From positions 1 to 64,000 of the IMG/VR virus record IMGVR_UViG_3300032116_000104: 64,000 nt of DNA; one strand, written 5' to 3'. Origin of the DNA: a virus. Of the stretch, positions 4,419 through 40,493 are shown piece after piece. A model generated the notes under the pieces. It ran no database searches and was not told the DNA's origin. It was given only the letters and a program-made list of their open reading frames with translations. Numbering within the stretch: the stretch's first letter is position 1; each line of letters opens with the position of its first letter. The translations under genes and the position numbers were made by a program.

Positions 4419-4425
4419 AAATCTC

Positions 4426-11279: not shown

Positions 11280-11290
11280 ATACACCGCCC

Positions 11291-11330
11291 AAAAGGAAAA
11301 ACCCCACCCTCCGAAGAGAGTGGGGTTTCC
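11291..11330 (-). terminator. Intrinsic terminator after the major capsid gene
   Basis: AAACCCCACTCTC-TTCG-GAGGGTGGGGTTT then TTCCTTTT; cUUCGg tetraloop. Confidence 0.88.
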
Positions 11331-11355
11331 CCTAACTAGATTGGCTAGTTGACTA

Positions 11356-12847: not shown

Positions 12848-14593
12848 TCATCCCTTCTTGGAGGCAACTCCAGATAACTGCTTGTCACGACCATTGGCGT
12901 CTTTCTCCCACTGGTCGGCTCGGCTCTTTCCCTTAGCAAAATCCTCAAATTTGGGCCTATCAAAGATTTCCATGGCTTTGCCAGGAACCTTTCGGGCAAT
13001 GAGTTTCGGCACCCCATCGTCGGAATCATTGTCCCAAAGATAGAACTCGTCCATTAGTCCTTCACCGAAGGCCTCGGAAATTGAGTACGGAATGATTCCA
13101 GCCATCTTTCTGGCAAGCCTCACTGGTGTTTGCTGGGTGCTGGTTTGCGCCCTTCTTGTTGCCCGTCTTTCGGCAACATCGTCTGAGGCATAAACGAAAT
13201 GACCAACAGTCCTGTACCCGCTCCTCTTGGCGCCGCGAAGATGCTCCGTTCTTCTGCCAGTTCCCTGAACTATCACGTCCATCCCTTCGGACACCGCATC
13301 TTTAATGATTTTGTCCGTGGCTACTCTTGATGTGTTGTGCACCGCCTCAATACCGCGCCCATCGTTAAATCCTGGTATTCCGAGTTTGACGAAATCTGGG
13401 TCAACATGGGCAGCCTCATCGTCGTTCGGTATTAGGCCGTTGGCCTGAAGGTGCTTTTCAACAACAGTTCCCTTTCCAGAACCAACCGTTCCACCAATGA
13501 AATATGTGGTTTTCTGCCCTGGCTTATTGCGGTGTTCTGGGCGAACCCTTCCGAGGATTATTCTCCCCATTGCCCTTCCGCCGAGTTCAGCATATGGATT
13601 TGCTTTTGTAGCCTTTGGATTATCAGTAGGCGGAGTAGTTGAAGAACGAAGGCCAGCAGGCTTTGACATTGAACGAGCAATAGAGGCTCTTTCCTTGGGA
13701 CTCAACTCAGCGATGGCATCAATTGAGGGGCCGAATCTGTCCTCTCTCTCCTGCTCGGACATTGAGTGATACCACTCTTCTGCTGGCGCTCGCCTCTGCT
13801 TTTTACCAGCGATGACGCCTACTGCTTTTTGAATTTTTCCCGTAACGGCAGGTCTCTGAAACGGCGTGTTGTCCTGAAGTATTCCGTCTCCATCACCATC
13901 TTCAGCCTTGGGGTCAAACCTGGCAGAAACATTCCTCAAAGTTCTGCCCAGGCCCTTGTAGTCGTGAAGTTCTTCAGCGAGTGACTTCTTTCGTGTTCTG
14001 GAAGAATCTTTTAGAACGGTTCTCACGGCTCTGGTAAAAGCCTGCTGCTGGTGCCTTCTTCCTAGTGGTGTTGTGCCAGCAAGGCGGTCATAGTCGCTCA
14101 TATTTGTGCATGGCATCCATACAAGTTTTCCACTTTTGCTTACTCTTCTTGATACCCCGATGCAGCCCATTTGGCGCGAGCGCTTCCTAGCCGACTCAAT
14201 GTCAGTGAAAACATCCATATCCTCATCTCTAGGGGAATATGGAGCCTGGATTGCCTTGACCGACATGCCACGGGATTCAATAGAAGCGGTTGCTATTGGG
14301 GCGGAAACAAGACCCCCAGATGGAAGAGTGTCAATGCCAAGAACACCTCTTTCGCGCAACTTCTGGAAGCCACTGCGACGCTTTTTGCCTTTCTTCTTTC
14401 TTCTTGAATTCCAGTTCTCAATATCATCTTGAGTAATCCTAGAAACCCCAGCCTTGCGCATCATGGCGTCTTTGTACTCTGTGAACGAAGAACATGGCAT
14501 CCATTCTCCGTGTTCACCAACATGGGCGCCAGAACAGCCGAGTTCAGAAGCAGCACGAAGTGCTTTTGCTTGAAGCGCTGGCTCCGACGACAT
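12848..14593 (-). CDS. Modular head-region protein: two GC...WMPC (DUF3721-like) repeats, DGDGD tag, GLRS, zeta-toxin-like P-loop kinase
   Basis: GCSGAH...WMPC and GCIGV...WMPC; FDPKAEDGDGDGILQDNTPFQRPA; FIGGTVGSGKGT...VDPDFVK...DVIVQGT. Confidence 0.8.
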   Translation of the reverse strand: MSSEPALQAKALRAASELGCSGAHVGEHGEWMPCSSFTEYKDAMMRKAGVSRITQDDIENWNSRRKKKGKKRRSGFQKLRERGVLGIDTLPSGGLVSAPIATASIESRGMSVKAIQAPYSPRDEDMDVFTDIESARKRSRQMGCIGVSRRVSKSGKLVWMPCTNMSDYDRLAGTTPLGRRHQQQAFTRAVRTVLKDSSRTRKKSLAEELHDYKGLGRTLRNVSARFDPKAEDGDGDGILQDNTPFQRPAVTGKIQKAVGVIAGKKQRRAPAEEWYHSMSEQEREDRFGPSIDAIAELSPKERASIARSMSKPAGLRSSTTPPTDNPKATKANPYAELGGRAMGRIILGRVRPEHRNKPGQKTTYFIGGTVGSGKGTVVEKHLQANGLIPNDDEAAHVDPDFVKLGIPGFNDGRGIEAVHNTSRVATDKIIKDAVSEGMDVIVQGTGRRTEHLRGAKRSGYRTVGHFVYASDDVAERRATRRAQTSTQQTPVRLARKMAGIIPYSISEAFGEGLMDEFYLWDNDSDDGVPKLIARKVPGKAMEIFDRPKFEDFAKGKSRADQWEKDANGRDKQLSGVASKKG

Positions 14594-14595
14594 AA

Positions 14596-14985
14596 TTACT
14601 TCGCAGAAGGGTATAGAGGATAGATGTCTTCGTTCCAATCATCTGGGACGATATTGTTCAGTTTCATGGCTGCTTGCTGAGCGTCATATGGATTTCCATA
14701 GCGCTTCTGATATAGACGCGCCTCTTCCAGGTCATCATCCCACTTCACTTCAAGAGTTGAGAATGGTCTATCCCACTTATCGGTACGTGTCATCTCTTGT
14801 TCAGCAGAAATTATTCCGTCCTGAAACTCTTTGCGTTTTGTGCGGCTTATCGTAAATGGCGGATAATCAAGAAGTATTGATAACTCCTTGTGCTTGCCGT
14901 GGAAGGCGGCCATCTGCTCTTCCGTAGCATTTGGCGGAGTGGCCCATTCGCTCTTGTAAATTGTGTTGTTTTCTTCCATGTCCAT
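14596..14985 (-). CDS. Hypothetical acidic protein (candidate immunity or partner protein)
   Basis: 129-aa ORF between two effector-bearing genes. Confidence 0.7.
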   Translation of the reverse strand: MDMEENNTIYKSEWATPPNATEEQMAAFHGKHKELSILLDYPPFTISRTKRKEFQDGIISAEQEMTRTDKWDRPFSTLEVKWDDDLEEARLYQKRYGNPYDAQQAAMKLNNIVPDDWNEDIYPLYPSAK

Positions 14986-15004
14986 ACCTTAGCACTACTG
15001 TCAA

Positions 15005-18000
15005 TTAGCCGTAATTTTGGATAATCCACTGACGACGAGCAATGAGTTTACGAATCAATTCGGCCCTCTCATTGGGGTCTGAAATCGCATCAGAAACCAT
15101 TTGTGTAATCATCTGGTCGGTGATTTTCTTCAAGTCGTCAACTTGTTGCTTAATTTCTTGAGGAGTGATATCTCTGAGAATACCCGCGCCTCCTGGGTTG
15201 AAGTTCGGGTCTCTAAGTGTCTCCATCTCCCTGGCTTCATCACCGAACTGGGTTCCCTTGGGGGCGCCCTGGGCCCTGTAGTTCAATGAGCCACCATGGT
15301 CAATTCTAACGGCACGGCCCTGACCGTCGTTCTTGATATTTCCAGAGTTGGCAAAGGCATCCCAGTTGCCGAGCCATGCATCGGCAACATATCCTCTTCT
15401 CATTGCCATTCTTTCACCAAGGGTATTGCCAGACATTGGGCCAGACCCAGGAACCCATTCGGAAACTACCTGTACTTGTCCATTGTCATTGCCAATATCA
15501 ACGCGCGATGCTGGAACATTGAGCGCTCGGTACAGTGCTGATGCAAGAACTTCGTTTTCAACGTGGGACTGAGAGCGTCCCTGCTTTACATAATACTTCT
15601 TGCCATCTGGTGCGGTGTACTGACCGCCAGGATTTGAGCCAAGTTGTCCACCAGTTTTTGTCCATCCAGAAGTATCAATAACTTTTGCGCTTGAACTGCC
15701 TTTGGCGGCCTTGGGGGTCTTGGGGGTCTTTTGCTTCTTCGGTTCCGCTCCGCTGACAATTCCAGCCTGCGCGTCTCTTACGATTCTCTGACCCTGCTCG
15801 TTGGTTAGCGGCTTATTGACGGCAATAATTGCGCCTCTGTTGTGAACAACGAGAGGTCCACCGCTTTCCATATCAATAGCGTCATAGCCTAGAACTGGCG
15901 CCCAATAGTTCATGTCGTGAGCAAACATTTTGCCGACATGCTGCATTGCTACCCAAATATCTTCCGAGTCTTTTCCTGATGACTTCCCGTAATTGTCAAT
16001 TAACTGCCTATAGACCTGCCCAAGCGGCGTGTCCCAATCGGCATCCGTTACCCTGCCCTCAAGGTGTTGGAGCAAGCCAGTAACATAATCTTTCGGGTCT
16101 GTTTTTTCCGCTTCTCCCTCTGGGAATCCAGCATCATAGGCTCTGATGGCATCTTTTATCTTTCGGCCATCTTCAACAATTCTGTCAAGTTCAGACCTCT
16201 TAACGACCCTCGCTGATGGAGAAACGAATGCAAGCATTCTCGCGTCTCCGAAAGAACTGCTCCATGAAAAACTGTCACCCTCAAAAGCCCAGTATTCACC
16301 AATGCCATATGCTGAACCACCCTGTCCAGGAATGAATCTGTCTTCATCGGTGAGATAAGCGTCAACAAATCCAGTGTCATTGCCAACACCCCTGTTGATA
16401 GGTCTCCATCCAGCGGTGACAAGCATTTCAACCTGGTCTTCTCTGATTTGGGTTGGCAGGCCGTTCTGCTCCATGTTTTCCCAAATCAACAAAAGACTTT
16501 CGTTCGTAACCTTGCCAATTCTCTTGGATTCGGTTTTCTCTCCGCGCTTAAACCTAGACAGTTCGCCCTCAATGAACGCCATTCTTGATGTCCACTCGGG
16601 AGTAACCTTGACCTTGAGGTCTGCTGGCTTGTCTCCAGTTACGCTCAAGGGATGCTTCAGTCTTCCTGACTGATTTCTTCCAGCAATCTTTCCTGCTGTT
16701 TCTTGACCCCTGAGTCGTCCAGCAATCTCACGCCTTGCTCTTCTGATGCGGCGAGCAATACCCTTCTTCTCGGCTTCGGCTTGTCCAGCGGTTCGCCCGA
16801 CTCCAGCCTTACGTGCTTTGCGTCTTTCGCGGCGCGCAACTCTCTTTGGATTTGGGTCAAGAAGTCTTCTTGAAAGACCTTCAAGTCTTTCGCTAGTTCT
16901 TTTCTTGACTTTTGCTTTTTCTCCAGTTTCAAGAGTCTCTTCGGCAACATATTTCTTTGCACGCCCACTCTTGCCGTAGTATGTGGAATCAACTCTTCCC
17001 ATTGTTGGGAATGTTCCTTCAATCTTCGTTCCAGAATCCTTGCCCTTTCCAAGCGCAGCCTCTTTGGACGGTGGATGAAGATGCTCAAGCATTTCATGCG
17101 AATCGTTTTTCTGCATGTTCCTGATTGTGCGCAGGTCGTCAAACTGGCGATAAAAAGTTTGGAACGCCTTGTCGTTCTCGGCAAGTTTTTTATCCCTATC
17201 TGGGCCTGGCGCCATATCACTCATTATTCTGGTGATTGAATCGCGTTCCTGTTCCTGAATTTCGGCCTGCAGAACAACCATAAATTCATCGGTAAAGTCG
17301 CTGTCGCGTGAAATGCCTGGGTATTGCTTTTTTGTCTTCGGATTTGTGAGCCAGGCATCCCAAAGACCACTTTTCTTAAAGATGCCTTGCAGTTTCTGCT
17401 TTCTCTTTTCAAGGTTTTGAACTACTGCGCTTCTCTGCTCTTGCGTCATTGATGCCCATGCTGAGCCGTCTTTTGCATCAACTCTGTCAACACCAGCAGT
17501 AGCCCGTGTTTTCTTTTTAGTCTTTGGCGTCTTTGTGCGTGAACGCATTCCAGTCTCAACGGTGCCTCTCTCCATTCTGGAGCGAAGACCAGCGGCTGGG
17601 CGCGTTCCTCTTCTTGGCGCGGCATCAATTTCTTCGGATGCTGCTGGCTTGGTTGTGCTTCTTAGTGAAGTACGCTGCGGCTTTCCACGACCTTCCGCTT
17701 GCTGCATCTGCTGTCTGCGGCTCTGCTCATTCCATGCGCGAGTCGCCGCTCTGGTGTTGACTTTGCCGCCAGTTGACCTGTCATTGACACCTGGAATTGC
17801 TGGACGCTGGAATGGAGTGCTGTCCTGAACGATGCCGTCGCCATCTCCGTCCCAGGCATTGGGGTCAAATCTTGAAGTTATTGCTCTTCCGATTCTGCGG
17901 GCGCTTCTGGTGCCACCGCCGCCTCCGCCGATTGCGCGACCGAGAGCCTTCTCCTCTGTCTTAAAGAAGTCTCCGACCTTTCTGCGCTCACCCTGTTGAA

Positions 18001-21214: not shown

Positions 21215-21216
21215 TC

Positions 21217-21621
21217 TTATACTTCCTTGTTTTCAGCAGAACTGTTTACTGGGCTGGAGAGTTCCACCCTGAAGGAGACGGCTTTTTCGTATAAGCCCTT
21301 CTGCTTCTTTCCACTCTTCATTATGTCAGACCTGATTTGTACGCCGTTGAGCATACTGTCTTTAATTTTCTGATTTTTTCTTACGAAGATTCTATACCAT
21401 CTCTCCATCTCGTCCTTGTCAGGAGTTGACCATAGATATCGGTGAAATTCCGTCTCCATGCTTTTGCGCAGACCAATGGCAAAGCGCACCGTATCCCAGA
21501 AAGAAACAACAGTGGGTTCAGCCCCCTCTGGGACAACCACACCATCAGACAATGGGCTTTCCGAGTCCAGAATGTAATAGAGATTGGACTTGTCAATCTT
21601 TGCTACGAATACTGCCTTCAC
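21217..21621 (-). CDS. Hypothetical protein
   Basis: 134-aa ORF coupled on both sides. Confidence 0.75.
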   Translation of the reverse strand: MKAVFVAKIDKSNLYYILDSESPLSDGVVVPEGAEPTVVSFWDTVRFAIGLRKSMETEFHRYLWSTPDKDEMERWYRIFVRKNQKIKDSMLNGVQIRSDIMKSGKKQKGLYEKAVSFRVELSSPVNSSAENKEV

Positions 21622-23267
21622 TTCTTCTTGTCCTTCTCTTTGAGGAACTTCTTGACAGCGTCTGGCAGTGCGGCATCTACTTCCTCAATTGCCTTTTGAG
21701 ACACAATGCGGTCACCAGACTCCAGAAGTTTGGTAGTCATGTCCTGAAAGGAATAAGGGTCAAAGATGTCAACGCCTTCTGAGTTGACAAATCTAATTTC
21801 AGAAATGTTGAGCGGACTCAACTCAACCTTCACTTTGTCTGCCGCTTTCTGCTGGAGATAGATGGTGACTGCTGGGAGATTAAGCCCGCCCCCGATTGGG
21901 CCGCCGCCCTGCATGAATAGAACAGCATCCTCGTCGCTCAATTTCATCTTCTTTAGTTTCAATGCTATGACATCTTTGCCAACAACTGGGTCGCGAGGGG
22001 GAACCTCTACCGAATTTATGTCCAGCATTGACAGTGGGTAGTGGATGACCTCAACCTCGCTCTTGTTGATTCCACCGAGAATGTAGGCCTTGAATCCAGG
22101 ACTATTGGCATGTCCAATGAGTTGCGAATAATCGCCAGTAATGGCTGCCTCAATGTAAATCTCCAGAAGTTCAAGGTTCCTGGCTTCGCTATTACGGGAG
22201 TTGATGTTCCCCAGAACAGCAAGGGCAATGTTCTCAGAATCCTCTGACATGGTTGAAACGGAGTAGGCGTTATCAAATATGCCAGTGTTTCTTGAGTATC
22301 CCGTGCGTCCAAAAACCTCTGGTTTGAGCAGGATGTGAATCTTGTCGTTCATTGAGAAGAACTCGGACTTGTAGTTCTTCTTCTTGTTATTGGGCTCGGC
22401 GGACTTGAATCCAGAGTGGTGCATCCACCCAGAGATGGGGCGAGCCTCGTCTCCCGTCTTTCTGCTGATTCCCAAAGTTAGGTCAGCATCTCTCTGGATG
22501 TCCGCTTGTGAGCCAGACGACCTATCTCTTACTATTTTCTTTCTCTCGGCTAGAAGAAATAGTGTCTCCACAGACGCATCAACAGAGACAAATCTCTCAA
22601 ACCCAGCATGCAATCTGAAAGCCAATTTCTCTAGAATCTCTATAATCTCTTCGTTGGTCTTTTTTTCCACCGCTTTCTTCAGGTATTTAGATACCTCAAC
22701 ATCGTTTTCCCTGACAGATACGGACGGCATTCGGATATCGTCTAGAATCTTCATTACAGTGTCGGTGAAGTCGTCGTAAGCGTCGTCAATATCCGTCGCA
22801 TAGTTGGTGCCGTACATCTCATCCAACTTTGAGATGTCATTCATCATGGACTTAGATGCACTGAAGTGGTCAAATGGCTTGCCGCCAGCAGCCTTAATCT
22901 CCCTGATAACAGACTCATTGCGGCGAGAAATTTCTAGGGCATTGCTTGACTTCTTGGTTGACTTGCCGCGACGCTGTTTCTCCTCTTGACGCACATCTCT
23001 AATGGCATCAATAAGCAAGCCAGCCTCTCTCCGCTCATCGCCAGTCATTGTTGCCGAGGCTTTTTGGGCACGTCGCTCCATGTCGGACATGACCTTATCC
23101 AGGCCGTCTTGCTCAATAACTTCAAGAACCATGGTGCCATCTGGGTCAGGCTGACCCACCCTCAGTTTGGCTGGAGGTAGGACAACATCCTCTTTCTGAC
23201 GGTCTTTGTTGGACTTGAATATTCCCTTGGACCCAGCAGGAAGTTTTACACGAACTTTCTTGCTCAT
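21618..23267 (-). CDS. 549-aa head-region protein, possible degenerate DUF3626/ART-like fold
   Basis: R.AD..LG......ARPISG and FKAYILGGI...EVEVI loosely echo RP.YG and YIEAQIHG of DUF3626. Confidence 0.7.
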   Translation of the reverse strand: MSKKVRVKLPAGSKGIFKSNKDRQKEDVVLPPAKLRVGQPDPDGTMVLEVIEQDGLDKVMSDMERRAQKASATMTGDERREAGLLIDAIRDVRQEEKQRRGKSTKKSSNALEISRRNESVIREIKAAGGKPFDHFSASKSMMNDISKLDEMYGTNYATDIDDAYDDFTDTVMKILDDIRMPSVSVRENDVEVSKYLKKAVEKKTNEEIIEILEKLAFRLHAGFERFVSVDASVETLFLLAERKKIVRDRSSGSQADIQRDADLTLGISRKTGDEARPISGWMHHSGFKSAEPNNKKKNYKSEFFSMNDKIHILLKPEVFGRTGYSRNTGIFDNAYSVSTMSEDSENIALAVLGNINSRNSEARNLELLEIYIEAAITGDYSQLIGHANSPGFKAYILGGINKSEVEVIHYPLSMLDINSVEVPPRDPVVGKDVIALKLKKMKLSDEDAVLFMQGGGPIGGGLNLPAVTIYLQQKAADKVKVELSPLNISEIRFVNSEGVDIFDPYSFQDMTTKLLESGDRIVSQKAIEEVDAALPDAVKKFLKEKDKKK

Positions 23268-26200
23268 TAGACAACGCTTTCTTTGCGATTTGGGTCAGGT
23301 ATTTGACGTGATGAAATCCATCTATCACCTACAGCGAGACGAAGTATTGCATTTTCACTCATTGTTGCCAGTTCATTAACATACAGGCGCATTTTAACAT
23401 CCCGAACCCTTAATCTTTCTGTTTCCGCCTGAACGCCAGCATTGGCCATATGATTTGTTACGCCAAGTTCATCAGCGATACCGCTAATTCTTTTTTCAGC
23501 CGTGGCAACATTCCACCCAAGTCCTGAACTGTCTCCCGATAGTTTTACTTCCCTGGGCATGCCCATTTCTTCTAGTAAATTGGCAACAATTTCTCCCCTT
23601 TTTGATTCCCTAGTTAGGCCAGCCATGGCAAAGGAGCCTTTTGGTATGACCAATCCAGAACCTGGAGCGGCAGATGCGTATGTATCAACTCCATAAAGAT
23701 TATCCAAAGCATCTGGATTATGTTTTATAAATTCCCTTAGTGGTATAACTATGGCACGACTTGACTCTGGAGTTTCCCTCGCTGAATGGCCAGAAACAAT
23801 ATGGTTCAGGGCAAAGTGAACGGTGCCCCTATTGAGCGGAATATAGTAATATCCAGTACTTTCTGTGCCCATAGGCATTGTCGCCCCATAATCTCCAGAT
23901 GGGCGCAAAATCAAATTTCCGTCCTCGTCAACTTCTGGTTCATAGGGAGTTTCATGAACCAGGAATAAGTCGTCCACCGAAAGTCCAGAGAAGTCGCTAT
24001 CTCGTGATGGGCGCAAAAGTCTTTCTTTCGTTTCGTCACTTATGTCCATCGCTTCAACTTGTTCAATCCATTTCTGTCTTTCTTCTTTTTCTTTCCTTAT
24101 TCCTTCTTCTCTTTGAATTTGCAATTTTTTCCTTGATTCTTCAACCATCTGGCGGCCAATGCGTGCCATTTCCTTTAATGTTTTTTCGGCTTCTGTATCA
24201 CCTCTTGATGACGCATAAAGAAGCGCTGCGACAAATGCTGATTCATCAAGACTCCCTTCACTGTTTGCATATGTAACTGCATATATAAAGTCAGATGCAG
24301 CCTGTTTTCCTTCTTCAGATGATTCTGGAAATCCAGATATAACATAAGGATTCAGGGGCATATCTTTTATTTCTGGGTTGTTCGCAACAACTTCTGGTCG
24401 GGCACCAAACATGACTTTTTCACCAGCAAAATCCCAAACTTCTATTTCCCAAACCGTTCTAAAGCCCTCCAGACCCTCGTCCGAAAGTATTGTAGTTTTT
24501 TCTCCCTTGAACTCTCCTGGCTGAAGTCGCTTGGGTGTACCAGACCTTAATCCCCTGCCAGTTGAACTGCGTAATCCCCTGCCGCTAAACGGGTCGCTTG
24601 GGTCAAATACCGTAGGCTCCTCATCCATCCCCATTCTTTCCCGAATTCTTCTCATCGTCCTTCTGCCTGCATCTGCAGCCCTAGATACACCGTCGTTGGT
24701 ATCTGGTGGAGGAAATGGATTACCGAACGGGTCGCTGGGGTTTTGTGTTGACTCTTCTCTAGTGAGCCTGCCTCTCGCCCTTGATGCGGCAGAAGAAACT
24801 CCTTGTCTTGCCGAGCGCGCCCTCTCCCTGTTTTTTTCTGTATCAATTCTTGCCCTTGCAAATCGCCCAGCATTGACGGCAGCATCCTTGAGTGGGTCGG
24901 GAAGTCCTTCTGGGGCAATTCTGTCAAGGCGCGAAGTTATTGCATTGGCTTGTCTTTGACTAAGTTTTCCGTCTTCAACAAGTTTGCCGACAACATAATC
25001 TGCGACATCCCTACCGCCCCTCCGCGCAAGTTCAAGACCTAGTTTCGTAATAGCAGCCTTGGGTCCAAATTTCATCGCTAAAGCAGTATCAAGAATCATT
25101 CCCGCTACTTCTTTTTCACCCTCGTCAAGGCCCATCCTCTCGGCAATAGCGTCAAGCGCCCTACCCTTGAGTCGCTCCCCAAGTCCACCTTTTCTCTTCT
25201 TTCTTTCTCTTCTCGGGCGAGATGTGTCAACTTCTGGAGTGGTCACTTCTGGAAGAGCAAACGGGTCGGCAAATGGGTCGCTTGAGTCATAGGTGCCAGG
25301 GGTTGTAGCAGGTGTTGTGGCAATTGTTCTTATAGGAGTTGCAAACGGGTCGGCAAATGGGTCTGCAAATGGGTCACTGCTAGACCTGAGGCCGCGAGAT
25401 TCACCCCTCATTAGCCCAGTATGTGTAATTTCTGTTCCTGGAGTCATTGAGGCAATATCGCCAATATCTCCGAGGTCATCTGCATCAATCTCAACAACGG
25501 CGTCAAATAGGAGTGGATTCTCCTCCATTGCAGAAAGCATTGGGGCCATATAGTTCTTGACTTGCTCGTCAAGCAGGGATGAATCAGATGACTTCGGTGT
25601 TCCTCTGGAGCCCATCAGTCTTGTGTCGTTGAGCAGTCTTCTTATTTCAGCGCTCTCTCTCAAAGAAGAAGAAACACTTCTCAGCCCAAGGTCGCTTGAC
25701 ATGTATGGGGCGTTTCCAGATAGTGCGTCTTCAACAGAGCGAGCCTGCTCCCTTGACATATTGCGCTGTGTAGTTACTGCTTGTATTCTAGAACTGCTTC
25801 TGGAGCCCATACGCATGGGGACTTCATCCATTTCCTCCCTATCAAAATTTGATAGGTCAAATCCGTATTCGGGTATCACCTCAATGCCATGCTCTTTTAC
25901 AGCCTGCAAGTCAGCAAGGTCATCTATTGATGACATAAAGCGCTTGAGGGCCAGAGCCTGATTGCGCTTTCTTCTCTGGAAGGTTCCCTCATCTGGCCTT
26001 TTTTCATTGCCAGATGCACGCATGGCTTCATCTGCGGCATTCTTAACAGCGGCCTTTAGTTGCATTAACTGGTCTTCATCAAGTTCCCTAAGGTCGGTCG
26101 TCCCAAAGTTCTCTTGTGAATACTCGCGGACAAAACTTAAATTCGTGGTTGGACCATATCTCCCATCATCCCCGCCATTAACACGGGCATTGATGTCATC

Positions 26201-29104: not shown

Positions 29105-29121
29105 AGGGATTCACTTTCTTT

Positions 29122-30630: not shown

Positions 30631-30725
30631 TGGTCGGCTCCTTAATGTAAACCGTCGTAGAGTTTATCTGTACTGTGTAAAAGTATACCCTACACACACG
30701 TCGTGTAGGAAGGTATTACTGCGTA

Positions 30726-33700
30726 TTAGAGGTCTTGAATCTCAACTTCTCTTCCGCGCTGATTGCGTCGGTTGACCGTTCTGGAACTCAACTCCTCAAC
30801 CGTTCTGTCAATGAATGTAGCCATGGCTGCTTTAGCGAGCATGTCAAGCATGGTTGCAAACTTCTGCTGACGCTCGTTGCCTCCGATGGCACCTTGACGG
30901 TCAATGACCACCATCATGGCGTCAAGGATTTCATCAACTTCATCTCTGGTCATCAGGATGCGCCCAGCGTTGGTTCTTCTGCTGCCCAACTTGGCTGCCT
31001 CTTGACGACTGATGAGGTCTTGAAGCGCCTTGAGGGCGTCTGATGTTCTCTTGTCCTGAGCCTTGTCTGCCTCACGGATTTCCTTCGGCAGTGAGTCAAG
31101 AATATCTTTGAAGAAAGTGGCTTCTGCCTTGATTTCCGTGCGGCCCTGCTTGGAGTCGGTTGACGACCTCAGGCCTCTCGTGTTCCGCGAGCGGGCGGCC
31201 ACATAATCCCTAACTTCCTGGGACACCACCCTGTTGGCATTGACTGGGACACTTGAGCGGAGACCCTCACCCATGCGTCGGGTAATGACTTCTCCTGCTG
31301 CTGGCTCCGCGTCTGGAGTTGGGACATTGTCGTCAATGTCCAGTGGGCGGCCCTCAACTCTCCTGACAACACCGCCAGTATCGTCAAACGCATCGTCTGA
31401 AATGTCGGCAATGTCGGCAGCAGCGCGACCCCTTCTCGGTGCAACCTCTATCTCTGGTCCATCCTTAATGAACTTGTCATTCTTGTAATAAGTGTCCAGT
31501 CCGTTAAGGGTTCTCAAGAGTGTTTCTGCTCGCTGAATAATCTTCTCTGCTGGACCATCGGTATCGTCGGCTTCCTCGGCGTCAGCGAGGTAGTTCTTAA
31601 CTCTCTGGATGGCAGCCTTGATTTGGTTCCTGCTCAGGTCTTCGCTGTCCATAATGTCAGCGATTTCATCCCAGGCCTCAGCATGGAGTTCATCAATTCT
31701 GCCCCTGTCTGAAAGTCTTGAAGCGTCGTTGACGGTCTTGTCAAGGAAGTTGTTGATTCTTCTTGAGTCGTCTCTACGCTCCGTGGTTGCGTCTTCGTCA
31801 TTTGCAGGACGAGGCTTGACGGCAACTTCTTTTGGCCCCTGTTGTGGCTGGCGTTGTGTCGGCTGCACTGGGCCCCTCTCGGCACGACGAGCCCCACGCT
31901 CTGCCCTTCTTTCGTCAGAAGCCTCTCTATCAAGCACTTCCTTCATAACGCGCTCATAGTCAACTTTGCGCATTCCACTTCTCTCTGGAGAGTGGTCTGC
32001 CATCCAGTTGAACTGTTGTTCTGCCGTCATGCCATCCCAGTTATCTGGCTTCATGCTCTGGAATGTCTTGCCCTTGCTGTCTTCCTTGGCCCTAGAGCCC
32101 ATCGGGCGTCCTTTGCTGCCACTGCGACCAGTATCACCGAGTCCTGTTACGCGGATTCCACCTCCGCCAGTATCGTCATCGCTGGTTGATGAACGCATGC
32201 CACGACCACTTGACTTCTTGGGATTGGCATCGCCAGTAATATTGCTGTACAGGGTATCAAGGGCCTTCCAGTCCTTCGCAAGAAGCGTTCCGTCCCCACG
32301 CCTGTTGTACTCCTCTCGGATTCTCATTGAGACGCCGAGGCTTCCACCCCTTGCGCTGTTCATGAAGAACACGAGTTTCTTCTGGCGGGCCTCATCAATG
32401 TCCGCAGGAGCGCCATTGTTATTATTTGAACGAAGGCCTAGGTTGCCGCGCTTGCCAGCCTGCTGGTCTTCCCAGTTGAGGCTCACATACTTTCCGCCCT
32501 CTGATTCGGCGGCCTGGTCAATTACGCCCTGAATGTCGGAGGTAACAACTGTTCTGCCGTCTCGGCGTGGCTCTTTTGCCGACTCAATGGCGTCTTCAAT
32601 CTGCTCAACCTCGTCTGGGGTGAGGTCAACTTTGCCATTCCTTGCGTTTTTAAGTTTCTCGTCAAGAGCATCAAGCGCTGCACCATTGGCAGAAAAACGC
32701 TTGAGCATTGGAATCTCGTCGCGAAGTTGTGCAATCTCATCGTCGCTGAGCGTCATTGATAGATTGTTTGCAACTCTTCTTGTTGAAGAACGCATTCCCT
32801 CATCTGAATCGGTCCGTGACTGTTGTGCCGCCTCGCGACGACGCATTGCACGCAGTTCCGCCTTGCGAACATCTTCACGACGCATTCCGAGAGACTCGGC
32901 CACTTCCTGGAGTGATTCACCTGCCTCGCGGCGTCTCAGAATTCGGTTTTCCGTTTTTTCTCTTTTTGCCCTTTCAAGACCTTCCTTGACGGTGGGTCTT
33001 GGTTTCCTGGCGGCGCGCGCAGTTGTGACCGCCCTGTCTTTCCCAGTCCAGTCCTTGAAAATCCTTGCCCTGGTCGCAAAATCACCTATTCCTTTATCGT
33101 CCCATGCATCAAAAACTCTTTCAGTTATTCCATCACCCCATGGGCCCATCATTTCCCTAACAGACGGGTTCTGCACTGGGAAGTCATCATCTATGCCCAG
33201 AGCGCTGGCAATTTGCTCGGCAACGATTTCCCCAAAACCGTTCAATACATCAACGAATGCCGATTCTTCTCCTTCGTCCCCAAATAGTCCATCAGACATG
33301 AGCCTGACCGCATCCTCTGCGAGAGAATCCATGCGAGAACGCATATTTTCTCTGGTAAATGGGGTGTTGGCAGCCGCATCAAAGAGTTCTTCAGTCCTGC
33401 TCCGAGACGACTCATCCAGGTCACGAATCATTGACCTTCCTGACTCCCTTTTACGCACATCAGACACTCTGTCTTTTCTGTCACGAGTTGACGACATCAG
33501 ACCTCTAATGCGTGCCTTTTGCTTATCGTTTGGATTTGGACGAATGGGCAATTTTTCAATATTGCGCTCCATGCGGTCACGCCAGTCATCCAGAAGTTCA
33601 ATTATCTCATCTTTGCTGAAAGAGTCCCAGTTTCGCAGCCACTCTCCCGTTGGGTCATCTGGGTCAGGGAGATACTCATTATCTGGGATGTTCGCTGCCT

Positions 33701-36700
33701 TGACTCTTTCCTCAAGAAGGTCACGAGCAAGGTAGGCAATATCAGTGACAGCCGTTCTATCTCCGCCACCTCCAGTGTTTCTGACACCATTTGCGGCTAT
33801 GTCAATTATTGACTGACGGATACGATTTAGTTCATCGCCAATGTTTTCTGGAGTTATGTCAGTGAGAACTATTGATTCAAAAAGTTCCATCGCTCTGTCT
33901 GCTGTGGCGGCATCCCATCCACCGCCCTGCTGCCCAGGCTGCATGAACCCCCTGATGTCACGCAACTCTTTTGACGCATCAAGTCTTGCCTGACGCGCCT
34001 GTTGTGCTGCCGCAGATGCGCGCCCTGCCTCTACGTCCCTCATATTGACGACTTCTACATCGCCAGTGCTGGAACGGACTCCTGTAGTTGGAAATTTGTT
34101 ATTTAACCCATTGGTCAGGGTATTGATTTCGTCTTCTGAGAATCCAAGTTCTCTGAGTTTGCCAACAATGTCTGACTCAATTTTCTGACGCGCCTCGCGA
34201 GACTCCGTTGGGTCAATCTTGCCCTTTTCATCACGCTTGACCATTCCAGAGCCGCGCTTACCGAGGTTCTCGGTCGTGGAGCGCATTCCACTACGGCGAC
34301 GCGCTGGGTTCAGGTTCTCAAGTTCTTCTTTAGAAACACCTTCAACAATGACCCTTCTTGCGGTCTTGGCGACTTCAAGTTGTCTGGCGAGCCTGGCTTC
34401 GTCTGGGCTTGGCTTGGCTCTCTCCATGTTCATATCGTCAACAGCAAGTTTGAGAACTCTATTCATGTCCTCAAAGTTGGTAGTCCCATTCTTCATGTCA
34501 CGAATGAGGCCATCAACCCAATCCTTGTCAAGGCCGCCCCTTGCCGAGTAGGCGGTTGGATAGTCTTCTAGTGACTCTTCAATATCTCTCAGAAACTCTG
34601 AAATTCTTCTGCCGCGACGGTCGGTAATTGACAGCGGTGAGTCCATTGAAGAACTCCTGAGACCACGAGCACGATTCATGCGTGGGTCTCCTCTGGTCTC
34701 TGCAATCTCCCATGCACGGAGGTCTTCCGCTCTGACGCCAAGGATTCCAGCAAGTTCACGAACTGGCGTTCCTTCAAAGCGCTTACGCAAGATGAATTCA
34801 GCAAGAGCCCTATCGGTGTCCTGGAATCGCGGCTCCTGACCTGGCTCCCCTCGTTGCGCAAGTTGTGCTGGTGTTCGTGCTGGGATGAGGTCTTTCGCCC
34901 TCTTCTTAATTTCCTGAATTTCTAGTTTCCGCACTTCTTCGCGCGACATACCATACTCTTCAGCAACATCATCAAGTACTTTGCCAGCAAGACGAGCATC
35001 AACAATCGCCCTGTCTCTGTCAATCTCAACCTGCATATCGTCCAGCAGCGCATCAACATCGTCTCTATCGGTTGAGGAACGAAGGCCTCTTCTTGAGCCA
35101 CCCGCATCTATGGAATCAGCAAGTTGCTGAATATCCTCAAACGGACCACCACGGTCTCTTCCGTATGCAGAGAGAGTGGCTATTAAAGCCAGTCTTGCGT
35201 TGTTCTTATCGTCCTCGCTAAGAGGAGACTTTGGCCTTCTTCTGCTCGGAAAGAATTTTGTAAAATCATCTCTGTCGCCGTCAGACAGTTTTATATATTG
35301 GTCTTTAAGTGTTGAAATAAGGTCGCTTAGTTCTTCTGCGCCAGGAAATTCGTCTGGAATGTCGCCTTGCATTACTGATGCAACTGTCCAGTCTGAACCA
35401 GGCTGCGGGGGAAAGTAATCGCCCTGTTCGCTAGGCATAAACCGCGAAAGAACCTCCCCGAGGTTTTCAAGGAGAATTTCATCTACATCATCCATTGATG
35501 TATCACCGTCATTGCCAAGACTTGCGTCAAGCGCCTCTATTGCTCGCTGAAGTGCTTTTGTCTGCTCATCTATGGTCATTTCCGCAAAGCGGTCTCCCAT
35601 TGCGTCAATAATTTCTCTTTGCTCTACGCTATTGGCCTTTGCCGTTCTTGAGCGAAGCCCATCAGGGCGACCCTTGGAGTCTCCAGCACTTTGCATGCTA
35701 CGCACCATGTTACGAAGCGCATCAGAGTTTTGCTTATCCGTACTACGAACTCGCTTGTTATTTACTGAGTCAAGAACTGTGCCGAGGGCAAGAAGAGACG
35801 CAATTTGGTCGTCTTCTGACACTGCTCTCTTCCCTCTGGTTTTATACATGTCACCAAAGCGACCCTTGCCGCCAAGTTTTTCATAGGCATCCTGGACTTC
35901 ACTCAGAAGGTCACTGACGCTCTCTTTGTCAACGCTCTCTGAACCATCAAGAATTTTGGATGCTGAGTAATCACCCGATGGCGCTTCCACGGATAGAAAA
36001 TCACTCATTAGTTCAGACAGGTATTCTCTGTAGAAATCAATTTCATCGTCACCAGTGGCATCAAACAATTCCAACTGGTCTTTAACGATATTTCTAAAAG
36101 CCTCTTTTCTTTCAGATGGAGACATTTTTGCCATTGATTCAATTGCTGTTCCAGAACGCAGTCCACCATCACGACGGTTCTTGGCCTCAAGTTCGGCTTG
36201 TCGCACATCCTCGCGACGCATGTTGAGCGACTGAGCAACATCCTGTAGTGACTCCCCAGCCTCGCGGCGCTTGAGAATCTCATCGTTTGTCTTGCGCTTT
36301 GCATCGCGCTGGCGGATTGCCCGAAGTTCAGCCTTTCGCACGTCTTCGCGGCGCATGCCAAGGGACTCGGCTACGTCCTGCAAGGACTCTCCAGCCTCAC
36401 GGCGCTTCAAGATGGAGGCGTCGTCGTTGCTGTCTTTTCCACCAGATGAACGGAGACCACGACCAGTGTTGATGCCCTGCCCCTGGGCGGCCTGAATTGC
36501 CGCCTGAGTATTTACGCGACCACGCGTTGACCTGTCGTTGACGCCTGGAATCGCAGGTCTTTGGAACGGTGTCCCTTCTTGAACGATGCCATCGCCGTCA
36601 CCGTCCCAAGCGTTGGGGTCAAATCTAGCGGTTAGGCCTCTTGCGAGGCGGCGTCCTTTTCCCCCTCCGCCACCACCAATCGCTCGCCCGATGCGATTGC

Positions 36701-38015
36701 CAAGCCCCTTCTTTAGAGTTTCAACTGCATCAATGAACTCGGGAGTGACACCAGAGGTAATCACGATTCCCTTTTCAGAGACATATGAATCTACGCGGTG
36801 GTAATCCATGATTGGGTCAAGGAGTTGCTTCGTGTGGAAAGCATTATTGATGTCAACTGGGATGACATACTCTGCTGACTTCACTTCAACTTCCTTCTCT
36901 GCCGAAGCAAGGACATCTTGGAGCATTTCCATGACATTCTTCAGTTTTGCAAGGTTGCGCTTGTTGAGCGAGCGGCCAATCTTCTCCTCAATGTCATCAA
37001 GGAAGAAGTCGTCAAAGTCCAAGTCGTCGGACTTTCCTGGCATTGGCATGAAGTCGTCTGGGTCATCCCCAAGATAGGCGTCCCCCTGCGGCTTCATTGA
37101 CACAGCAAAAGCCTGTGCTGGAGATGACGGTATGGCGGGAATCTCTGGCGTGTAGACAGTCTGACTCTGGACGCGCTCAGGCTTGCCAAACATGAATTGA
37201 CCATCCTGGAAGTGGAATGCCACTCTGTATGTTGACGACTCACCGTCGCTTGTCAGTCTGTCAAAAACAACAGTGTTCTCTGTTGCGGCCCTCACGATGA
37301 CGTTGGAGCCAGACCGCTTGACAAGTTCCCTTCTGAGGGCAACCATCAGCGGGTTCTCTGGGGCAGATGGACGAACTGGGCGAACGGCCTGCTGTGGCTT
37401 CGGCGCCATTGGCTTCATCATTCCAGACGGCATTCCAGGGCTGTGCGGCATGCCTGGCATGCCCATCATTCCGTGACCCTTCTCCTCATCCGCCAGAGTA
37501 GTATCTGACTTAACCGAAATCGTGCCAGTCAGTTGGTTGGCTCCATGAAGAACTGGGGAAACCTCGTAAAGTTCCACCTCTCTGAGGATGTTGGCCTGAA
37601 GATTAGGGTCAAAAGACGCCTGAATGGTCTTGTAGCCAATTGACCACTCCTGCTCCTCACCAAAGAAGGCAACATTGGCGAAAGCCTCACGGCCCTTCTC
37701 TGAATTGAGGTTGAACTGAACGCGAGCGTAAAGACCGCCGATTCCAGCAGCCTTCATCTTTCCTGGCAGTCTTGAGTCGGTTGGGGGAACTTCGTAAATC
37801 TCCAAAACCTTGCCGATGGGGTCATTCCAGTTGTGTCCCCAGACGACTCTTGGCTTGCGTCGCTTCAGACTTGAGTTAAAAGCACCTGGGAGAAGAACAT
37901 CACCGACGCTGTCCTTGTTTCCGACGCCAGCAACGAAGCACTCAACGATGCCCTGAGCCTGGTCAACATTGAATGTTCCAGAACTCGCTTTGAACTCAAT
38001 ATCAGAAAAAGACAT
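30726..38015 (-). CDS. Prohead (HK97-type, S78) protease fused to a ~2250-aa modular polyprotein
   Basis: N-terminal ~170 aa: G.VE.FV...GNKDS.GD...PGAF..SL......W.HNW..PIG...WSIGY...LYEVSPVL.GAN. Lies between portal and capsid genes. Confidence 0.92.
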   Translation of the reverse strand: MSFSDIEFKASSGTFNVDQAQGIVECFVAGVGNKDSVGDVLLPGAFNSSLKRRKPRVVWGHNWNDPIGKVLEIYEVPPTDSRLPGKMKAAGIGGLYARVQFNLNSEKGREAFANVAFFGEEQEWSIGYKTIQASFDPNLQANILREVELYEVSPVLHGANQLTGTISVKSDTTLADEEKGHGMMGMPGMPHSPGMPSGMMKPMAPKPQQAVRPVRPSAPENPLMVALRRELVKRSGSNVIVRAATENTVVFDRLTSDGESSTYRVAFHFQDGQFMFGKPERVQSQTVYTPEIPAIPSSPAQAFAVSMKPQGDAYLGDDPDDFMPMPGKSDDLDFDDFFLDDIEEKIGRSLNKRNLAKLKNVMEMLQDVLASAEKEVEVKSAEYVIPVDINNAFHTKQLLDPIMDYHRVDSYVSEKGIVITSGVTPEFIDAVETLKKGLGNRIGRAIGGGGGGKGRRLARGLTARFDPNAWDGDGDGIVQEGTPFQRPAIPGVNDRSTRGRVNTQAAIQAAQGQGINTGRGLRSSGGKDSNDDASILKRREAGESLQDVAESLGMRREDVRKAELRAIRQRDAKRKTNDEILKRREAGESLQDVAQSLNMRREDVRQAELEAKNRRDGGLRSGTAIESMAKMSPSERKEAFRNIVKDQLELFDATGDDEIDFYREYLSELMSDFLSVEAPSGDYSASKILDGSESVDKESVSDLLSEVQDAYEKLGGKGRFGDMYKTRGKRAVSEDDQIASLLALGTVLDSVNNKRVRSTDKQNSDALRNMVRSMQSAGDSKGRPDGLRSRTAKANSVEQREIIDAMGDRFAEMTIDEQTKALQRAIEALDASLGNDGDTSMDDVDEILLENLGEVLSRFMPSEQGDYFPPQPGSDWTVASVMQGDIPDEFPGAEELSDLISTLKDQYIKLSDGDRDDFTKFFPSRRRPKSPLSEDDKNNARLALIATLSAYGRDRGGPFEDIQQLADSIDAGGSRRGLRSSTDRDDVDALLDDMQVEIDRDRAIVDARLAGKVLDDVAEEYGMSREEVRKLEIQEIKKRAKDLIPARTPAQLAQRGEPGQEPRFQDTDRALAEFILRKRFEGTPVRELAGILGVRAEDLRAWEIAETRGDPRMNRARGLRSSSMDSPLSITDRRGRRISEFLRDIEESLEDYPTAYSARGGLDKDWVDGLIRDMKNGTTNFEDMNRVLKLAVDDMNMERAKPSPDEARLARQLEVAKTARRVIVEGVSKEELENLNPARRRSGMRSTTENLGKRGSGMVKRDEKGKIDPTESREARQKIESDIVGKLRELGFSEDEINTLTNGLNNKFPTTGVRSSTGDVEVVNMRDVEAGRASAAAQQARQARLDASKELRDIRGFMQPGQQGGGWDAATADRAMELFESIVLTDITPENIGDELNRIRQSIIDIAANGVRNTGGGGDRTAVTDIAYLARDLLEERVKAANIPDNEYLPDPDDPTGEWLRNWDSFSKDEIIELLDDWRDRMERNIEKLPIRPNPNDKQKARIRGLMSSTRDRKDRVSDVRKRESGRSMIRDLDESSRSRTEELFDAAANTPFTRENMRSRMDSLAEDAVRLMSDGLFGDEGEESAFVDVLNGFGEIVAEQIASALGIDDDFPVQNPSVREMMGPWGDGITERVFDAWDDKGIGDFATRARIFKDWTGKDRAVTTARAARKPRPTVKEGLERAKREKTENRILRRREAGESLQEVAESLGMRREDVRKAELRAMRRREAAQQSRTDSDEGMRSSTRRVANNLSMTLSDDEIAQLRDEIPMLKRFSANGAALDALDEKLKNARNGKVDLTPDEVEQIEDAIESAKEPRRDGRTVVTSDIQGVIDQAAESEGGKYVSLNWEDQQAGKRGNLGLRSNNNNGAPADIDEARQKKLVFFMNSARGGSLGVSMRIREEYNRRGDGTLLAKDWKALDTLYSNITGDANPKKSSGRGMRSSTSDDDTGGGGIRVTGLGDTGRSGSKGRPMGSRAKEDSKGKTFQSMKPDNWDGMTAEQQFNWMADHSPERSGMRKVDYERVMKEVLDREASDERRAERGARRAERGPVQPTQRQPQQGPKEVAVKPRPANDEDATTERRDDSRRINNFLDKTVNDASRLSDRGRIDELHAEAWDEIADIMDSEDLSRNQIKAAIQRVKNYLADAEEADDTDGPAEKIIQRAETLLRTLNGLDTYYKNDKFIKDGPEIEVAPRRGRAAADIADISDDAFDDTGGVVRRVEGRPLDIDDNVPTPDAEPAAGEVITRRMGEGLRSSVPVNANRVVSQEVRDYVAARSRNTRGLRSSTDSKQGRTEIKAEATFFKDILDSLPKEIREADKAQDKRTSDALKALQDLISRQEAAKLGSRRTNAGRILMTRDEVDEILDAMMVVIDRQGAIGGNERQQKFATMLDMLAKAAMATFIDRTVEELSSRTVNRRNQRGREVEIQDL

Positions 38016-40445: not shown

Positions 40446-40493
40446 ATGAACAACATTACCTTATACGACGAACGGCTGTCGGAGGGCATATTT

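Follow-up and report, generated by a model that had tools for sequence, protein, structure and literature searches.

What occupies the 25,421 nucleotides (nt) that separate the start of the major capsid protein (MCP) gene from the stop of the portal gene in the virus record IMGVR_UViG_3300032116_000104, and what might the very large proteins encoded there do? The window analyzed in this study comprises the first 64 kb of this 84,372-base IMG/VR record, which carries a completeness rating of approximately 56%. Ten co-oriented, tightly packed genes on the minus strand lie between the two head genes, and four of them encode the multi-module proteins referred to here as giants 1 to 4 (p2429, p1945, p1195 and p596, after their lengths in amino acids (aa)), the first of which begins with a prohead protease of the Peptidase_S78 family. 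We assign a probability of roughly one half to the explanation that the giants are effector polyproteins that are loaded into the virion and cut at their linkers by a phage protease, with the S78 enzyme as the favored candidate. This explanation is proposed because the protease is fused to giant 1, the cassette occupies a fixed position, the linker motif is matched at a junction in the capsid protein, the giants carry a portable tag, and their modules are of effector type. The giants would enter the procapsid by means of their N-terminal parts or tags and the protease; a phage-encoded protease, most plausibly S78, would then cut them at the linkers into separate proteins; and the pieces would remain in the head before entering the host with the DNA. 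Within the procapsids of HK97 and T4, the prohead protease processes internal proteins as well as capsid and scaffold.

The genes of the region are listed below in the order in which they are read. Each giant consists of an N-terminal part (the protease in giant 1 and a leader in the others), a K-x-L-G boundary, a tag containing DxDxDG (a Cys motif takes its place in giant 2), and payload modules set off by a short linker motif of the form G[LM]RS.

38106-40202, minus strand: portal, 698 aa (Pfam Phage_portal, 1e-49; phrog_2662, 2.2e-67)
30726-38015, minus strand: giant 1 (p2429), 2429 aa
29122-30630, minus strand: p502, an acidic, motif-free protein of 502 aa with orthologues at the equivalent position in five of five relatives
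23267-29104, minus strand: giant 2 (p1945), 1945 aa, with leader, K-A-L-G-R-S-I-G (28616-28627), Cys motif and five GLRS
21618-23267, minus strand: p549, motif-free, 549 aa
21217-21621, minus strand: p134, motif-free, 134 aa
20615-21214, minus strand: p199, motif-free, 199 aa
18589-20634, minus strand: p681, motif-free, 681 aa
15005-18592, minus strand: giant 3 (p1195), 1195 aa, with leader, K-A-L-G, tag, SLRS/GLRS/GMRS and an 845-aa payload
14596-14985, minus strand: p129, motif-free, 129 aa, with matches in three of five relatives
12848-14638, minus strand: giant 4 (p596), 596 aa from TTG, with two DUF3721 units, K-G-L-G-R, tag, GLRS and a zeta-like kinase
11356-12684, minus strand: HK97-fold MCP (HK97 gp5 chains 1ohg/2gp1, approximately 1e-54)

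The original prediction, made from the window itself, described a separation of about 25.4 kb by ten co-oriented genes, and these open reading frames were recovered at the sizes claimed; the last gene, given there as 581 aa, has that length from an ATG at residue 16 and reaches 596 aa in the same frame from the first TTG. Six of the inserted proteins (p502, p549, p134, p199, p681 and p129) had no above-threshold family match (E <= 1e-3) in Pfam or PHROGs, with weak sub-threshold matches only (p502 to PepSY, 0.002; p199 to phrog_6439, 5e-4; p681 to phrog_20983, 7e-3). Giant 2 had no Pfam, PHROG or PDB sequence match, and a search of a phage collection was likewise empty, while giant 3 gave only chance-level matches to PDB sequences. 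In giant 4, the DUF3721 units were matched by Pfam at 3.3e-9. The p502 protein may be a scaffold or core protein. The portal itself has a C-terminal extension of approximately 200 aa past the Phage_portal domain and a low-complexity PGMPGMPGMP run at aa ~420-460, the latter retained in all five relatives.

These relatives were drawn from scans of viral contigs. A scan with the protease domain found at least 599 stretches, of which at least 596 were confirmed and the best 80, at 76-85% identity, were kept; a scan with the MCP returned 456 confirmed stretches, of which the best 80 loci were used. The whole portal-to-MCP region was compared in five records (G001 to G005, with the window as G000), one of them (G001) a complete 148-kb genome with terminal repeats. 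The relatives share ancestry, so agreement along clades does not count as independent evidence.

The first element that carries the argument is the protease at the start of giant 1. The parts of this protein relevant here are as follows.

37479-38006, minus strand: Peptidase_S78 prohead protease domain, aa 4-179 (PF04586, phrog_80)
36708-37478, minus strand: conserved post-protease segment, aa 180-436
36459-36707, minus strand: boundary K-G-L-G-N-R-I-G followed by the tag FDPNAWDGDGDG..PFQRPAIPGVNDRST (tag profile, hmmsearch E 5e-31)
36447-36458, minus strand: first GLRS, directly after the tag
30729-31166, minus strand: C-terminal module, aa 2284-2429, approximately 146 aa, directly after the last GLRS

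The protease is thus followed by its post-protease segment, K-G-L-G, the tag, 13 motif-delimited modules and the conserved C-terminal module. The domain scored 45.2 bits against PF04586 (cut-off 21, E 1.5e-11, aa 19-166) and 4.5e-29 against phrog_80, 'head maturation protease'; it is approximately 40% identical to annotated capsid maturation proteases of Gordonia and Brevibacterium phages, and a comparison with PDB sequences gave no match. The motifs WGH.W and WS[IV]GY are retained in 76 of the 80 related loci, and we take their conserved His and Ser to be the catalytic residues, as in HK97 gp4. The above-threshold model score, the His and Ser motifs (at motif level) and the position of the gene between those for portal and MCP place the domain in the S78 family. 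The N-terminal part before K-G-L-G had been described as a leader; it consists of the S78 protease and a further conserved segment of approximately 250 aa. Since the separate 494-aa protease gene of G005 includes this segment (aa 180-436), we assign it to the protease and not to a cargo leader. The canonical order of portal, protease and MCP is therefore retained, with approximately 2250 extra residues on the protease and nine genes inserted after it.

The boundary is also where the protease gene of G005 stops, and the tag of the giant that follows starts at residue 1. A tag can thus occupy a free N-terminus, and its fusion to the protease is dispensable. The C-terminal module is 46-54% identical at the end of the equivalent giant in G002, G003, G004 and G005, so that it occurs right after the last motif both in the protease fusions of G000, G002, G003 and G004 and in giant 1 of G005, while G001 is without it. 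As a separate observation, the 3963-aa protease fusion of G001 (L083) ends in a segment reading HELVHWTGH...EE..AE, which presumably resembles an ArdC-type zincin.

The position of the cassette bears on whether the giants are virion proteins at all. The cassette is syntenic in all five relatives, with the common order of portal, protease (fused or not), an acidic protein of approximately 500 aa, giant 2, three small proteins (approximately 136, 200-219 and 670-688 aa), giant 3, a protein of approximately 110-136 aa, giant 4 and MCP. The exception is G001, where proteins of 239 and 384 aa replace giants 3 and 4 and no protein of approximately 110-136 aa was found. The distance from the start of the protease to the MCP ranges from 23.5 to 46.7 kb in the relatives. 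The p134, p199 and p681 proteins are present in all five at 27-70% identity (the p134 counterpart in G005 is the N-terminus of a 1070-aa protein), and giants 2, 3 and 4 each have a leader that is conserved from genome to genome, with the N-terminal architecture of giant 4 alignable across five. Packaging of the giants is predicted from gene context, and they might instead be late-expressed cytoplasmic polyvalent proteins that happen to sit in a head operon. It is hard to credit this view, however, given a cassette fixed between the portal and MCP genes in five of five relatives, the fusion of giant 1 to a prohead protease, and the presence of Peptidase_S78 in 11 of 31 sampled tag-bearing proteins.

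The second element is the linker motif. The giants contain 21 copies of the pattern G[LMVI][RM]S (13 in p2429, five in p1945, two in p1195 and one in p596), compared to a mean of 0.98 and a maximum of six in 2000 residue shuffles of the four proteins, and ten other head-region proteins that were checked contained none. The recurrence of G[LM]RS that had originally been noticed therefore holds, and the motif is kept as lineage variants in relatives. An additional SLRS in p1195 brings the total to 22 sites, among which the Gly, Leu, Arg and Ser codons vary freely; because all four positions vary at the codon level, selection acts on the peptide and not on the DNA, and an origin of the motif at the DNA level (a recombination site or a recent duplication) was rejected on the same grounds. 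The residues flanking the motif are 16% hydrophobic, compared to 26% overall. In addition, homology with relatives comes in blocks whose internal ends often lie close to the motif: 33 of 87 are no more than 20 aa from a site, while 13.9 +/- 3.4 (maximum 25 in 2000 trials) would be expected by chance, a comparison to be read with the mutual non-independence of the blocks in mind. On the strength of the polar flanks and the clustering of block ends, we assign the motif to polar linkers between modules.

Each genome has its own version of this motif. The dominant forms and their copy numbers are:

G000: GLRS (15), GMRS (4)
G001: RFSS (14), RLSS (5)
G002: GLAS (11)
G003: GLAS (15)
G004: GMAS (13)
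G005: GMSS (16), GMRS (14), GMAS (6)

The variant of a genome is spread over all of its giants and is nearly absent from its conserved small proteins. Among the 76 of 80 loci that could be parsed, the GMRS, GLAS, GFSS, GFAS, GLSS, KLSS and RLSS/RFSS variants follow the clades of the protease tree. In giant 4, the motif that comes first after the tag falls in a single alignment column, with GLRS, GLAS, GMAS or GLSS in four genomes, in each case the genome's own code or, in G005, a minor variant (GLSS, two copies there). The general form is x-[LMF]-[RAS]-S, with Ser as the sole residue that is invariant across lineages, and the motif is probably a cutting site. A number of modules from the middle of giant 1 are without counterparts in the five relatives. 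One p1195 module was found inside giant 1 of G005, which means that modules move between giants.

The invariant Ser also fits a reading in which the motif is a flexible linker or a modification site on that Ser (for instance, for phosphorylation by the kinases encoded in the cassette) and the proteins act at full length. Large proteins that are packaged uncut are known, including the N4 virion RNA polymerase (PMC5512222) and P1 DarB (PMC9024508). We nonetheless regard this reading as very unlikely, since it would leave hard to explain the matching motif at the scaffold junction of the MCP, where cleavage is expected (see below), and would have to accommodate a protease fused to giant 1 and a gene boundary in G005 that falls exactly at the junction of leader and tag.

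The boundary and tag provide the third element. There is a single K[AG]LG in each giant, at aa 436 of p2429, aa 160 of p1945, aa 215 of p1195 and aa 228 of p596, while p2429, p1195 and p596 each have one DGDGDG and one PFQRPA. The order of leader, K[AG]LG, tag, G[LM]RS and payload claimed for the 1195- and 581-aa proteins was confirmed and is conserved in relatives, as was the arrangement claimed for the 1945-aa protein, where KALG is followed by a Cys motif of its own (RCPPGxPAANQFT..NCF in place of the tag) and then GLRS. The boundary that ends the leaders reads K-[AGS]-[LI]-G-[RQP]-x-[IL]-G and is the same in every lineage. In giants 1, 3 and 4, it is followed by a basic stretch and then by the tag, [FL]DPxAxDxDxDG[ILVM]..[DE]G.P..RP, in which D41, D43, D45 and G46 are invariant across 16 tags. 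The DxDxDG portion resembles a calcium-binding loop. Loops of the EF-hand, Excalibur and dockerin type have a hydrophobic residue at position 8 and an acidic ligand at position 12, where the tags have Thr or Gly in place of Glu; one match to the tag profile carried Excalibur.

A profile of the 16 tags searched against 1.84 billion cluster representatives matched 849 at E<=1e-3, 183 at E<=1e-10 and one at E<=1e-30. The tag is conserved in relatives, a point on which the original prediction depended. The matches lie mostly at residue ~210-290 or ~430-520 of proteins of 700-3300 aa. A Pfam scan of the 31 top matches found Peptidase_S78 in 11, and other domains among the 31 were Sigma70_r4 and other helix-turn-helix (HTH) domains, ART-PolyVal, PI3_PI4_kinase, HipA_2, pentapeptide repeats, GmrSD_C and DUF3721. 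A search of the whole 84-kb record with the tag profile found giants 1, 3 and 4 as the only carriers. Tags within one genome are more alike than orthologous tags across genomes (all three tags of G002 read LDPRKRRDVDGDGMIFDGTW), a pattern of concerted evolution that points to one common partner in each genome. A complex prediction between MCP (30-row alignment) and tag (16-row alignment) scored 0.00 with controls not run, and speaks neither for nor against binding. Self-cleavage of the tag at Asp-Pro, for which FrpC-like proteins provide a precedent, was set aside as a candidate: the tags of G005 and G001 lack the D-P pair, and no part of the tag other than DxDxDG is invariant.

A neighboring gene may be mentioned beside the tag and the MCP. 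A gene for an Asp/Asn beta-hydroxylase (10746-11378, minus strand; Pfam Asp_Arg_Hydrox, 1.3e-15) overlaps the end of the MCP gene, and a homologue occupies the equivalent place in 21 of 80 related loci. Eukaryotic Asp/Asn beta-hydroxylases hydroxylate Asp or Asn of calcium-binding EGF domains, and it is conceivable that the DxDxDG tags or the MCP are substrates of the phage enzyme.

The capsid protein bears on what the protease might recognize. The first ~90 residues of the MCP, a delta-like domain, are strongly conserved and are followed by a variable junction, which could be parsed in 51 of 80 loci. The junction of G000 reads S-L-K-G-L-G-S, in which K-G-L-G-S (aa 91-95, 12400-12414) fits both K[AG]LG and G-L-x-S; K[AG]LG, reported earlier as a feature of the giants, is indeed present in all four of them but is thus also found in the MCP, at aa 91-94. 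Among the parsed loci, the junction reads Q-L-S-S-R-E in six loci (all six with S-class cargo motifs), Q-L-T-S-R-E in five, G-L-R-E in eight (all eight with GLRS or GMRS cargo) and K-[GS]-L-G-[SAR] in seven. This match, though partial, is the strongest connection of the motif to the enzyme expected to trim the capsid protein, and S78 is favored as the cutter because the scaffold junction of the MCP bears a matching motif in many lineages.

The code is also found outside the head cassette, in the gene for the tape-measure protein (TMP):

53628-57623, plus strand: TMP, 1331 aa (phrog_4070 'tape measure', 5.5e-7)

The TMP of G000 carries GMRS at aa 41 (53748-53759) and GVRS at aa 570 together with GLRS at aa 575 (55335-55361), so that G[LM]RS, although present in all four giants as claimed, is not confined to the region to which it had been assigned. 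The genome's own motif was found in the TMPs of G000 (two strict sites), G001 (three), G002 (four) and G003 (three), with a shuffle P of <=0.001 in each, while in G004 and G005 near-variants occupy the two corresponding positions of the TMP (~aa 24-57 and ~aa 575-750). Proteins other than those entering the procapsid therefore carry the code as well, and, as the TMP leaves the virion at infection, cutting may extend beyond the procapsid.

Several observations weigh against the S78-processed polyprotein. In nine loci of the R class, with GMRS-type cargo, the MCP junction has nothing that matches the motif; the five relatives do not conserve K[AG]LG there; and the mature N-terminus of HK97 gp5 aligns approximately 48 residues downstream of KGLG, on which grounds K[AG]LG was rejected as a conserved maturation site of the MCP. 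The TMP ought to be out of reach of a protease that acts only within the procapsid, yet it carries the genome's own motif in four of six genomes. Among 39 loci with at least three copies of their dominant motif, the motif classes at position 1, 2 or 3 are not told apart by any alignment column of S78, which leaves visible S78 substitutions unsupported as the explanation of the variants. The p549 protein is a separate gene in G000 and G003 and part of giant 2 in G004 and G005, where the fused p549-like modules have no motif within ~120 aa upstream; not all junctions therefore bear the code, a rule by which motif equals gene boundary failed on these fusions, and the only split that fits it is that of protease and giant 1 in G005. 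Finally, giant 2 contains a conserved zincin motif, and hence a second potential cutter.

27359-27373, minus strand: HEFGH zincin motif of giant 2 (motif only)

It is possible, then, that the same cargo is processed by another enzyme or at another time, with the zincin of giant 2 reading the motif or with cutting taking place only after ejection in the infected cell. The lineage-specific variants in the TMPs of four of six genomes, the HExxH conserved in six of six giant 2 orthologues and the lack of any S78 residue that follows motif class would all be accommodated in this way, and cutting after ejection would reconcile head cargo with TMP, as both would meet a co-delivered protease. Zincins of polyvalent proteins have been proposed as processors in the head or after injection (Iyer et al., PMC5512222). 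On the other hand, the scaffold junction of the MCP, a textbook substrate of prohead proteases, is class-matched in 14 loci, the zincin call rests on the motif, and giant 2 sequences come from six genomes only. We consider a different cutter or timing unlikely, and S78 remains the enzyme that we favor. A broader proposal, which we raise tentatively and hold to be doubtful, is that the single lineage code of MCP junction, giant joints and TMP reflects one phage protease that matures all proteins leaving the virion, possibly finishing its work in the cell, with the DxDxDG tag as a portable address for head loading and effectors swapped in plug-and-play fashion.

The last element is the identity of the payloads. 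The domains that could be located are:

13112-13525, minus strand: zeta-toxin-like P-loop kinase, giant 4 aa 372-509 (Pfam Zeta_toxin, PF06414)
15008-15691, minus strand: atypical kinase-like domain, giant 3 aa 968-1195 (AlphaFold2 model, pLDDT 87.5)
15752-16675, minus strand: ADP-ribosyltransferase (ART)-like domain, giant 3 aa 640-947 (AlphaFold2 model, pLDDT 85.4)

Two of the predicted payloads are supported by above-threshold Pfam matches, namely the zeta-like kinase (Zeta_toxin, 3.1e-13, 50.1 bits vs a cut-off of 22.3, with the Walker A sequence GTVGSGKGT in the translation) and the sigma4-like HTH (Sigma70_r4 units in giant 1, 6e-10). For the HipA/PI3K-like kinase, the kinase-like fold stood and the family did not. 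The model of the C-terminal domain of p1195 matched CtkA (3akl) in Foldseek at E 4.6e-5, and VIA gave CtkA a Z of 16.4 (rmsd 3.0, 200 aligned), followed by CotH (14.2), PI4KIIa (13.8) and HipA (10.8-11.9); GSNPGG, YVK, AWLGNWD, N and DxGG are conserved in an alignment of 26 sequences. Pfam gave no match to HipA_C, HipA_2 or PI3_PI4_kinase, and Atlas gave leads at 0.92 only. The domain is accordingly described, from its model, as having a kinase-like fold and is not filed as HipA. The ART-like and zincin payloads are weakly supported. The top VIA matches of the ART-like model score low (Spx, Z 6.4; cholix, 5.9; exotoxin A, 5.7; then PARPs and ParT), and although ART toxins, at Z 5.7-6.4, are its best structural matches and Atlas gives a lead to ART-PolyVal (PF18760) at 0.90-0.91, there is no Pfam match. 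The zincin shows HExxH in six of six giant 2 orthologues and a downstream E..AEL in five of six, with no match to a profile hidden Markov model or a PDB sequence.

Homologues of the kinase-like domain occur in proteins with ADPrib_exo_Tox, NUDIX, MuF and portal-like domains. In the unrelated lake actinophage Actinomycetia phage DSL-LC01 (L082, GenBank OQ999401; 10635-32978), where portal and MCP are approximately 19 kb apart, the intervening stretch includes three genes with the annotation capsid maturation protease, as well as one for a 3289-aa hypothetical protein in which the p1195 kinase-like domain has a homologue.

The nature of the modules is also relevant to whether the giants might be structural and either set the size of the head or conduct the DNA, as an internal scaffold, inner body or ejectosome, in which case the motif would serve to dismantle them and the enzyme-like domains would be secondary. 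The interval between protease and MCP is the usual place of a scaffold, the leaders and the C-terminal module are conserved, many modules belong to no recognizable enzyme family, and the motif is common to the TMP, a structural protein that is ejected. But the middle modules are highly variable, with several unique to G000 among the six genomes, which is unusual for structural parts; the identifiable modules belong to conflict or effector types (zeta kinase, CtkA/HipA-like kinase, ART-like, sigma-4 HTH); and the MCP has an N-terminal delta-like domain of its own. A structural role is thus quite improbable.

How do these proteins, read as virion-loaded cargo, relate to known systems? Polyvalent proteins (Iyer, Burroughs, Anand, de Souza and Aravind, 2017, PMC5512222) are encoded beside virion genes and have been predicted to be packaged, processed and injected. 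Some contain assemblin-like peptidases of the prohead-protease type, 'always at the C termini', that are expected to process the proteins, and a zincin-like MPTase is their commonest hub domain, though not an obligatory one (PMC5512222). Like polyvalent proteins, the giants are very large, carry strings of conflict-type domains (kinases and HTH, with a putative ART and a putative zincin peptidase) and lie near virion genes. Unlike them, the S78 protease here is N-terminal, while the assemblin-like peptidase is C-terminal there; in addition, the part of PMC5512222 considered here describes no lineage-specific linker motif, DxDxDG tag, K-x-L-G boundary or code shared with TMP and MCP. Unrelated domains are combined in p1195 (ART-like and kinase-like), p2429 (protease and Sigma70_r4) and p596 (DUF3721 and Zeta_toxin), and each of these proteins therefore has the two or more unrelated conflict-type domains of a polyvalent protein. 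Functionally, the giants are members of the polyvalent-protein class, with their delivery alongside the DNA suggested by gene context.

The internal proteins and Alt of phage T4 carry a short N-terminal capsid targeting sequence that brings them into the core of the procapsid and is removed by the head protease at the motif L/I-x-E, and their cargo includes an ADP-ribosyltransferase. Compared to the giants, T4 uses another signal, protease family and motif, and its cargo is small and single-domain. The SPN3US protease gp245 is T4 gp21-like. Targeting by T4 propeptides is also mentioned in PMC10052503, according to which gp245, the prohead protease, cuts after AXE and so frees head and ejection proteins of propeptides that make up their first 20-254 aa. 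Many head-packaged proteins of SPN3US and phiKZ are ejected, and some propeptides have several sites (PMC10052503, PMC7411985, PMC5694885). The present system shares with these ejection proteins a short motif and the phage's own prohead protease, whose cutting is predicted here. It differs in combining S78 with x-[LMF]-[RAS]-S, and the substrates in SPN3US and phiKZ are separate proteins and not polyproteins fused to a protease; cleavage of a TMP is not described in the part of PMC10052503 considered. Proteins of the T4/phiKZ type have a gp21-type protease and a motif ending in Glu (LxE or AXE), neither of which was found in the cassette, where the protease is S78 and the motif x-[LMF]-[RAS]-S. 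By analogy, the cassette would work like the processed proteins of the T4/phiKZ type, but it is not a member of that group.

In herpesviruses, the UL26-type assemblin is a maturation protease N-terminal to an assembly protein, from which it releases itself at sites composed of a small residue and Ser. The N-terminal fusion and the small residue-Ser sites are features in common with giant 1, while UL26 has a scaffold and two sites and giant 1 has approximately 2250 aa and 13 sites with enzyme and HTH modules. P1 DarB is a 250-kDa anti-restriction protein that is packaged in the head via an N-terminal capsid localization signal and found in virions, and its gene lies beside the portal and prohead-protease genes (PMC9024508). 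Unlike the giants, the P1 Dar proteins have no repeated internal motif and no protease fusion, and their domains are different. Within the literature outside subscription journals and supplements, no N-terminal fusion of S78 to cargo, lineage-specific linker code, DxDxDG tag or code shared by TMP and MCP was found described; the supplementary architectures of PMC5512222 may bear on this.

If the virion-loaded polyprotein is the correct explanation, an abundant freshwater group (at least 596 contigs) would spend 15-30% of its genome on injected, self-processing polyproteins, and the cassette would be the clearest case yet of HK97-type head machinery adapted for the bulk delivery of effectors. 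It would provide a large catalogue of modules probably active in the first minutes of infection, in host takeover and anti-defense, and a set of protease, motif and tag that is open to in vitro study, including a candidate portable signal for capsid loading. In addition, ADP-ribosyltransferases of freshwater phages, which were earlier interpreted as 'Trojan horse' toxins directed at grazers (PMC6802176), would become one module of a virion cargo aimed at the bacterial host. The sharing of the cargo code by the TMP poses a mechanistic question that can be tested directly.

The remaining genes give an impression of the phage that carries the cassette. Other virion-related genes in the window are:

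40446-41801, plus strand (opposite to the head genes): large terminase
50893-52356, plus strand: tail sheath

A baseplate gene also lies on the strand opposite to the head cassette, and the presence of tail sheath and baseplate genes identifies the phage as contractile-tailed. It is an uncultured phage of approximately 150 kb and a member of a large freshwater group. The nearest cultured relatives of its protease and MCP, at 40-49% identity, are phages of Actinomycetota (Gordonia, Brevibacterium and Arthrobacter), in which the protease and MCP genes are only approximately 1 kb apart; the host may accordingly be actinobacterial. Immediately downstream of the head module, a gene at 9552-10256 (minus strand) encodes a 234-aa protein with DUF6321 (4.4e-29). 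The window also contains six tRNA genes among small open reading frames at 811-4499 (plus strand; Gln-TTG, Lys-TTT, Thr-TGT, Ser-TGA, Leu-TAG and Arg-TCT), and two auxiliary metabolic genes, a PAPS-reductase-like gene at 46757-47911 (plus strand; phrog_2302, 1.6e-75) and a gene for a B12-dependent class II ribonucleotide reductase at 7002-8927 (plus strand; Pfam RNR_Alpha, Ribonuc_red_lgC and RNR-II_ins_dom).

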